A DNA stretch of 46,809 nt from a virus (IMGVR_UViG_2531839193_000010); one strand, 5' to 3'. Shown: positions 9,376 to 9,962, counted from the stretch's first letter. A program made the numbers and translations. The notes: generated from the letters alone by a model not told the origin.

Positions 9376-9897
9376 GTGATAGCTGAACTGTCTGCGGCTA
9401 TGGCTGCTATAAAGGAGACTGCCGGTCTTGCTAAGGTTATTAATGACGCGAAAACGGATGCAGAAGTTAAAGCTGCAACCATTGAACTCCAGAACAAACT
9501 AATCACGCTTCAGGCAGAATGCTTCTCTCTTGGCGATGCGATCCGCCTTCGTGATGAAGAGGTGATGCATCTCAAAGCAAAAATTGCAGAGTTTGAAGAT
9601 TTTTGTGCCAAGGTAGAAGGATATGTCCTTGATCAGCTTGACTCTGGTGCTTTTGTTTACTCTAAAAATGAAATTGTGAGTGGAAAAGAAATAACTGTGC
9701 ATCTGTGCCCACTTTGTTATTCCAAAAATATAAAATCGATACTTCATCCGCTTCCAGTAGGTAAAACTTCTCATTTTCTTACAAGCCGTTGCCTTCACTG
9801 TGAAAATAAATTTCTTATGGAAAAAAATCCGATGTACGAACGACCAAGATCATTACGTGAGTCGGGGCGAGATCTGAATTCGCCTTGGATTCCTTAA
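9376..9897 (+). CDS. Hypothetical protein with N-terminal coiled coil and C-terminal CxxC...CxxC zinc ribbon; AT-rich accessory gene
   Basis: 173-aa ORF on the opposite strand to its neighbours, visibly AT-richer codon usage, own intrinsic terminator downstream; start codon (GTG 9376 or ATG 9400) uncertain and no strong SD. Confidence 0.5.
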   Translation: MIAELSAAMAAIKETAGLAKVINDAKTDAEVKAATIELQNKLITLQAECFSLGDAIRLRDEEVMHLKAKIAEFEDFCAKVEGYVLDQLDSGAFVYSKNEIVSGKEITVHLCPLCYSKNIKSILHPLPVGKTSHFLTSRCLHCENKFLMEKNPMYERPRSLRESGRDLNSPWIP

Positions 9898-9939
9898 ATC
9901 TTGCATTGGTTGGATGATACCCAGATTGTTAAAGATCGA

Positions 9940-9962
9940 AGCGTCCTATAGGGCGCTTTTTT
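9940..9962 (+). terminator. Rho-independent terminator after the 9376-9897 gene
   Basis: 7-bp stem AGCGUCC/GGGCGCU with UAUA loop and one U-G wobble, followed by a T6 run. Confidence 0.6.

Follow-up and report, generated by a model that had tools for sequence, protein, structure and literature searches.

A Rip1-family homologue in a leader-terminator slot of an Escherichia coli prophage immunity region, a probable single-gene anti-phage defence

ORF173, a plus-strand gene in the immunity region of an Escherichia coli prophage, probably encodes a Rip1-family protein, through which the prophage would carry an anti-phage defence made up of one gene and acting as a ring-triggered pore; by analogy with the characterised members of the family, a probability of about 0.75 is given to this reading. 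That the protein is a homologue of Rip1 is in itself close to certain. ORF173 is a divergent relative within this known defence family and no new kind of system, and the part of the locus most worth following up is the swappable slot which holds the gene, with its uncharacterised alternative cargos. The window, which is the whole stretch of 46,809 nucleotides that was analysed (IMGVR_UViG_2531839193_000010), is an E. coli prophage, and all coordinates are counted from its first letter.

Rip1, an abbreviation of "ring interacting pore 1", was reportedly described by Patel et al. in 2026 (Nature 651:1060). It is a prophage-encoded single protein devoid of toxicity when alone (PMC13434031). Escaper mutations fall in the portal for Pseudomonas phages and, for E. 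coli phages, in the small terminase, different Rip1 proteins responding to one or the other of these triggers (PMC13434031). Twelve Rip1 monomers encircle the 11-mer small terminase (PMC13434031; PMC12908700); the N-terminal part is an amphipathic helix, the C-terminal half touches the small-terminase ring, and the complex is a pore, as seen by dye release from liposomes and premature cell lysis (PMC13434031). Homologues are widespread in proteobacterial prophages, and the deletion and expression analyses reported show that Rip1 acts in defence (PMC13434031). A meeting report (PMC12908700) and a further paper (PMC13601566) are in agreement with this summary of function.

The features of the region are the following.
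9273..9359, + strand: conserved leader of the slot, about 90 nt (repeat D3; cross-genus alignment; junction with Kati and PhiR29_1)
9376..9897, + strand: rip1-like coding sequence, 173 aa, GTG start, TAA stop (ORF list; identical to WP_000559914.1)
9379..9612, + strand: predicted N-terminal helical region, residues 2-79, with helices 2-24 and 28-79 (AlphaFold2 secondary structure; omega)
9625..9825, + strand: predicted C-terminal beta-rich zinc-ribbon domain, residues 84-150 (AlphaFold2; cysteine conservation; omega)
9923..9965, + strand: conserved right frame with intrinsic terminator (common to Kati and PhiR29_1)
10046..10101, - strand: putative OL/PL (repeats common to the cI-cro gap; promoter scan; PhiR29_1 divergence)
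10128..10753, - strand: cI repressor of LexA/S24 type, converging on the rip1-like gene, truncated to 169 aa (ORF 10244..10753; 1-nt deletion)

The rip1-like gene and its relationship to Rip1

ORF173 is a real and intact gene under purifying selection. The plus-strand ORF of 173 aa announced by the original prediction was found uninterrupted at 9376..9897 in the ORF list, and its product is labelled 'hypothetical protein' by PGAP in NZ_CP069500. Two starts, GTG 9376 and ATG 9400, had been left in competition. An in-frame TGA (9364-9366) bars any start upstream of GTG 9376, and this codon is favoured over ATG 9400 because residues 2-8 (IAELSAA) are kept in 33 homologues and because residue 1 pairs with residue 1 of JBD30 gp30 in the BLASTP alignment. 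The caveat of a weak ribosome-binding site stands, the Shine-Dalgarno sequence being limited to GAG at 9365-9367. The alignment and the profile were built from the same 33 homologues, which show 52-88% identity. Pairwise dN/dS (omega) against 17 diverged alleles ranged from 0.17 to 0.45, an eighteenth allele being near-identical. Of 5,426 complete E. coli genomes, 155 carry the 1.3-kb locus over 80% or more of its length, and ORF173 is near-identical across many of them. Two minus-strand ORFs lying within the rip1-like gene (9499-9798 and 9312-9506) were dismissed, conservation, codon-position GC and homology being all in the plus-strand frame.

When the profile of the 33 homologues was compared with the PDB sequences, a single strong entry was highlighted, 9oox_L, which is HK446 Rip1 (E = 4.8e-20, query 5-151, chain 15-160). 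The title of this PDB entry describes the Rip1 of phage HK446 bound to the small terminase of phage T6. By BLASTP, ORF173 shares 25% identity with HK446 gp37 (YP_007111990.1; E = 2e-13) and 30% with JBD30 gp30 (E = 3e-20, from residue 1). In PHROGs it is matched by phrog_1244, annotated as function unknown (E = 2.7e-52), to which HK446 Rip1 and JBD30 gp30 are likewise assigned. An AlphaFold2 model with a mean pLDDT of 91.9 was obtained from the 33-sequence alignment, and Foldseek comparison of this model with the PDB gave 9oox_L and 9oox_M as the only significant matches (probability 1.00, target-normalised TM 0.52 and 0.71); in the BFVD viral fold library there was one marginal, unnamed match. 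The remote homology search and the structure prediction proposed as checks of the original prediction both lead in this way to Rip1. An exhaustive profile search for the family collected 2,494 cluster representatives at E≤1e-3.

No match to ORF173 was found in Pfam even at E≤10 and nothing significant in NCBIfam, and in PADLOC-DB 2.0 (2023) there was a non-significant match to DinG (E = 0.023). The characterised Rip1 proteins are also without PADLOC match, which indicates that this library predates the Rip1 family.

ORF173 shows every sequence, fold, motif and context feature of the Rip1 family that was tested. Its similarity to characterised Rip1 proteins is significant over nearly the full length, the N-terminal helices and the C-terminal domain of the model are superposable on the solved chain, the CxxC...CxxC pattern lies in the C-terminal domain, and the gene is, as in HK446 and JBD30, a lone small prophage gene (about 150-175 aa) without partner. 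The closest parallel is HK446 Rip1, which is of similar size (164 vs 173 aa), belongs to the same phrog_1244, aligns nearly from end to end and combines a helical N-terminus with a four-cysteine beta domain, an architecture predicted for ORF173; both are genes without companions, in lambdoid prophages, and run antisense to the early-left (PL) unit that surrounds them. HK446 Rip1 differs by 10 extra N-terminal residues and by the lack of the tail (151-173) found in the ORF173 subfamily. Furthermore, HK446 rip1 is located downstream of N, whereas ORF173 lies directly after the putative PL/OL, with no N between, in a leader-terminator slot whose leader pattern gave no match when searched in the HK446 locus. 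The Rip1-type gene of the Mu-like Pseudomonas phages (JBD30 gp30, DMS3, D3112 orf25) also belongs to phrog_1244 and is also placed on the opposite strand, but among terminase genes rather than in the immunity region.

The spacing of the C-terminal zinc ribbon, given as CxxC-x24-CxxC by the original prediction, was confirmed as C111-x2-C114-x24-C139-x2-C142 (nt 9706-9717 and 9790-9801), and the four cysteines, which are predicted to bind the metal, are invariant in the 33 close homologues. An alignment of 32 diverse family members, among them 29 distant representatives, shows no variation at C111, C114 and L123; at least 90% of the members, HK446 Rip1 and JBD30 gp30 included, keep C139 and C142, and L66, Y83, G91 and Y95 are near-invariant. 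Y83, G91, Y95 and L123 are, together with the four cysteines, present in HK446 Rip1 and JBD30 gp30 too.

The two halves of the protein do not evolve at the same rate. In most allele pairs the N-terminal half has an omega of 0.06-0.19 with low dN, whereas omega reaches 0.56 in the C-terminal domain. This pattern matches the conserved effector and variable sensor which a review describes for Rip1 (PMC13434031). By analogy, the N-terminal helical half of ORF173 would be the pore-forming effector part, and the variable C-terminal zinc-ribbon half the ring-sensing part. The N-terminal helix is conserved and rich in Ala, Gly and Ser; the hydrophobic moment of the N-terminal helices is moderate (at most 0.34), and transmembrane segment prediction on ORF173 returned none (maximum KD19 of 1.06).

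The rip1-like alleles are mosaic. Most of those compared (L002, L010, L019, L044 and L046) diverge from the window chiefly in the C-terminal domain. The reverse is seen in the PhiR29- and Salmonella-type alleles, in which the N-terminal half is more diverged (dN 0.41 vs 0.28), and this reverse pattern implies recombination, with mosaic exchange between the N- and C-terminal halves.

Leader, terminator and cargos of the slot

The strong terminator that had been assigned to the gene as its own is indeed a strong intrinsic terminator, but it is not the gene's own. It consists of a 9-bp stem (9938-9959) followed by a T-run (9960-9965) and is flagged on the + strand only; its fold of -17.9 kcal/mol (z = -4.2) was equalled by 0 of 200 shuffles. 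The junctions of the slot are sharp: identity with Kati and PhiR29_1 extends to 9359, is interrupted by variable cargo and starts again from about 9923 through the terminator. Since this frame is common to phages with unrelated cargo, the leader and the terminator belong to a fixed expression slot and not to the gene. The slot of PhiR29_1 holds a rip1 allele 58% identical to ORF173. The 144-aa ORF in the slot of Kati was tried as a diverged Rip1 and rejected (E = 0.67).

The leader carries two copies of CCCCAACAAC (9317-9329 and 9350-9362), the second of which passes the junction by 3 nt. Over 9273-9359 it is more strongly conserved across genera than the rip1-like coding sequence itself, and it contains a candidate pseudoknot (GCCUG/CAGGC and CCAC/GUGG) whose paired positions barely vary. 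Sigma-70 scans upstream of the rip1-like gene gave no convincing + strand promoter, the best candidates, TGGACC-18-AAGGAT (9303-9332) and the near-leaderless TGGATA-16-GAGTAT (9343-9370), scoring 7/12. The leader may act on the + strand, as promoter or 5'UTR, or else on the - strand, as part of the PL transcript. In several backbones the opposite strand carries the first early gene, and the leader begins immediately past the start codon of that gene.

A scan of viral contigs with the leader pattern gave at least 120 stretches. When the viral stretches and the earlier loci were taken together, 113 matches had a scorable downstream ORF, which was Rip1-like in 45, of phrog_5286 type (144-151 aa) in about 64 and a 98-aa ORF in 2. 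Behind 11 further leader matches lies a unit of two genes that opens with a short peptide (about 26-30 aa), rich in proline and charged residues (MSYDYEERHMPPFKRPEPPPKPDDSD). The phrog_5286-type and 98-aa cargos had no Pfam or PADLOC match in a scan that covered the single-ORF cargos.

These observations allow a broader but rather doubtful proposal, in which the slot would be a portable, lysogeny-specific cassette, downstream of an early promoter and always antisense to it, where enterobacterial lambdoid phages exchange defence genes; the other cargos would be anti-phage as well, and the ring that triggers the ORF173 subfamily would be a new one. If this were true, lytic transcription from PL, or from PR in a Salmonella prophage, would switch the cassette off.

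Genomic position and the immunity region

The rip1-like gene is located between the yfdP-yfdQ-yfdR early-left genes and a LexA-type repressor, both on the - strand. The same order, yfdR, yfdQ, yfdP (-), WP_000559914.1, LexA-family repressor (-), cro (+) and ymfL (+), is annotated by PGAP in NZ_CP069500, which is about 98.5-99.5% identical to the window over the early/immunity segment 6505-13424; only this segment matches well, the late genes being different. The original placement between early-left operon and repressor, on the strand opposite to both, holds, but it has to be amended in that the gene appears to sit downstream of the putative PL/OL and antisense to its transcript. A 15-nt operator-like sequence, AACTTnnCTTAGTTT, is present in two copies in the cI-cro gap (10778-10792 and 10827-10841); a second pair (10051-10065 and 10087-10101) lies in the interval that separates the terminator from the 3' end of cI. 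A permissive scan retrieved, with 8/12, a candidate leftward promoter, TTGCCT-17-TAGATT (10074 to 10046), whose spacer contains one operator-like site. In PhiR29_1, which has a different repressor, homology with the window ends at about 10012, as would be predicted for an OL/PL that forms part of the immunity module. We infer that PL/OL is at about 10046-10101 and that the leftward transcript would cross the rip1-like gene in antisense.

The cI gene of the window is truncated at a homopolymer (10244-10260), with T6 in the window vs T7 in NZ_CP069500, where the protein has 208 aa. The break falls at an 'ATVK' motif, which we take to hold the catalytic Lys. The frameshift could be a sequencing error or reflect a defective, non-inducible repressor, and it makes the regulatory state of the window prophage copy uncertain.

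Homologues were found in prophage contexts of five other genera. In Leclercia and Edwardsiella the homologue is found in the slot known from the window, in Klebsiella michiganensis it lies near kil and the repressor, and in Salmonella it follows cro closely, in antisense to the PR operon; all four adjoin the immunity switch. HK446 rip1 is found between N and ral/cIII, antisense inside the PL operon, and JBD30 gp30 between small-terminase-like and large terminase genes, on the opposite strand, so that in the window, HK446 and JBD30 alike the gene is a lone antisense gene among lytic genes. That it stands antisense just behind an early promoter points to lytic transcription working against its expression. 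In Serratia nevei CP196510 (L004, 6001-6525), a 59%-identical homologue was observed in the scrambled remains of a prophage, flanked by tail-tube genes and a Q-type antiterminator. Of the leader repeats it retains the proximal one alone, as CCCCAaCAAC, which indicates that the gene can persist without an intact slot.

ORF173 had also been described as AT-richer than its neighbours. With 41.4% GC vs 50.9% for the window (7th percentile of 522-nt windows), this is correct with respect to the left side (yfdP 51%, leader 52.5%) but not with respect to cI (42.7%), cro (43.8%) and the downstream spacer (41.7%). It is the immunity region as a whole that is AT-rich.

Between yfdP and the slot lies a GC-rich untranslated stretch (9042-9264, - strand), for which Rfam gave a full-length match, below threshold, to the Salmonella sRNA STnc100 (38.5 bits vs a gathering score of 47, E = 1.6e-6). 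The interval also contains an inverted repeat with 25-nt arms (8955-8979 and 9019-9043), it is labelled 'frameshifted hypothetical protein' by PGAP, and in one part it shares 88% identity with a stretch of Salmonella phage ST64B that has no annotation. The PL transcript may have a structured leader RNA here. At the gathering threshold, Rfam returned nothing in the rip1-like region, and at relaxed threshold only this STnc100-like match and a spurious Phe-leader on the terminator.

Elsewhere in the window, two cold-shock-protein genes (17798-18010, - strand, and 18311-18526, + strand) are found in the late-regulatory region of the prophage, one of them with a full-length cspA thermoregulator 5' region (18150-18593, + strand, 161 bits in Rfam); in the otherwise similar NZ_CP069500 a DNA methyltransferase takes their place. 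An ORF for an IS3-type transposase (rve integrase core and HTH_21; 21348-22139, + strand) lies just upstream of the packaging genes and suggests an IS insertion in the window prophage.

Proposed mode of action and alternative explanations

Exclusion or lysogenic conversion was the role originally put forward for this gene as a candidate, and it is supported by the homology to Rip1, a characterised prophage anti-phage defence. The mechanism proposed here carries over to ORF173 what is described for the Rip1 proteins of Pseudomonas and of HK446; its identity with these characterised proteins is only 25-30%. The protein would be produced in the lysogen and be harmless by itself. After superinfection, once the incoming phage has entered late expression and assembled a ring-shaped oligomer of small terminase or portal, the variable C-terminal zinc-ribbon domains would dock round the ring. 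Docking would gather the conserved N-terminal helices into a membrane pore, and the cell would be permeabilised or lysed before progeny are complete, which corresponds to abortive infection. Upon induction of the prophage itself, early-left transcription would oppose the expression of the antisense rip1-like gene. All four elements, namely expression in the lysogen, trigger, pore formation and antisense shut-off, are inferred for ORF173.

The window prophage has its own packaging and head module of four genes (23154-29439, + strand).
23154-23648, + strand: DUF1441 protein in small-terminase position
23648-25750, + strand: gpA-type large terminase
25959-27467, + strand: lambda-family portal
27316-29439, + strand: ClpP-capsid fusion
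On induction, the Rip1-like protein must tolerate the packaging rings of its own prophage or be shielded from them.

The comparison with rexAB made at the outset fits mechanistically, Rex and Rip1 both sensing infection and then permeabilising the membrane, and HK446 rip1 is in a similar antisense position. In Rex, infection is sensed by RexA and the membrane channel RexB then opens, with an abortive outcome. The likeness of ORF173 to RexAB and SieB would lie in a prophage-borne protection beside the immunity switch. Rex has two components co-transcribed with cI on the same strand, whereas ORF173 is one protein, whose gene converges with cI, and no homology to RexAB was detected with Pfam and PADLOC. 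A ring-sensing defence of another kind is RAZR (PD-T7-4), a ring-activated zinc-finger RNase with a Cys4 zinc ribbon which assembles round phage rings including the portal (PMC13017515). Its effector is a HEPN/DUF4145 RNase and not a pore, ORF173 has no DUF4145 match in Pfam, and no sequence relationship to RAZR was detected; the two are alike only in logic.

At an identity of only 25-30% to the characterised Rip1 proteins, the trigger specificity and even the effector behaviour of ORF173 could differ. The protein might belong to the Rip1 family and yet sense another phage or host oligomer, or have a non-lethal output, such as the sequestration of a terminase ring to block packaging. The high variability of the C-terminal domain, the mosaic of N- and C-terminal halves among alleles and the 151-173 tail absent from HK446 Rip1 are all compatible with this, as is the variety of triggers, portal or small terminase, used by Rip1 proteins (PMC13434031). 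However, the N-terminal half, the presumed effector, is the best conserved part and can be aligned from end to end with the characterised proteins; we consider such a departure unlikely.

It is far less probable that ORF173 is a gene of the lytic cycle, an accessory of packaging or of lysis timing which binds the terminase ring of its own phage and protects the cell as a side effect. The position of the Mu-like Pseudomonas homologue among terminase genes and the small terminase as known ligand in 9oox speak for such a role. On the other hand, the gene is antisense to the surrounding lytic unit in three of three contexts (window, HK446 and JBD30), and since sibling phages have unrelated cargo in the slot, it is dispensable for the lytic cycle. 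Defence has moreover been shown for Rip1 by the reported deletion and expression analyses (PMC13434031).

Nor is there much room for a regulator or chaperone that combines a coiled coil with a zinc ribbon, as in CT398/HP0958 (CdsZ) or TraR/DksA, and that would work on transcription or RNA instead of in defence, a reading that we hold to be very improbable. In zf-dskA_traR proteins, a CxxC-x17-CxxC finger follows a coiled coil. The TraR/DksA lead of the original prediction had to be abandoned, as Pfam gave no such match at E≤10 and the spacing is x24, not x17. The CT398/HP0958 proteins (zf-RING_7/DUF164) are involved in chlamydial and flagellar secretion and in sigma-54 biology, with no prophage moron context, and ORF173 reaches 11.9 bits (E = 0.11) vs a cutoff of 275, so that this assignment was rejected too. 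That ORF173 is instead a silent or decaying moron, unexpressed and without current function, as its GTG start, weak Shine-Dalgarno and lack of a clear promoter, and the frameshifted repressor and IS3-type transposase gene of this prophage copy, might suggest, is hardly credible in view of an intact ORF with omega of 0.17-0.45 across many alleles, its near-identity in many complete E. coli genomes (155 of which carry at least 80% of the 1.3-kb locus) and the strong conservation of the leader and terminator frame.

The preferred reading remains that of a Rip1-family defence protein with a ring-triggered pore. The assignment to Rip1 gives the 'hypothetical' WP_000559914.1 and its relatives a concrete and testable function, and the family gains a divergent branch in enterobacteria. 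For phage therapy and for the prediction of host range in E. coli, abortive-infection defences of this single-gene kind are of relevance as determinants of resistance. The anatomy of the slot, with its cargo between leader and terminator, offers a practical route to further prophage defence genes.
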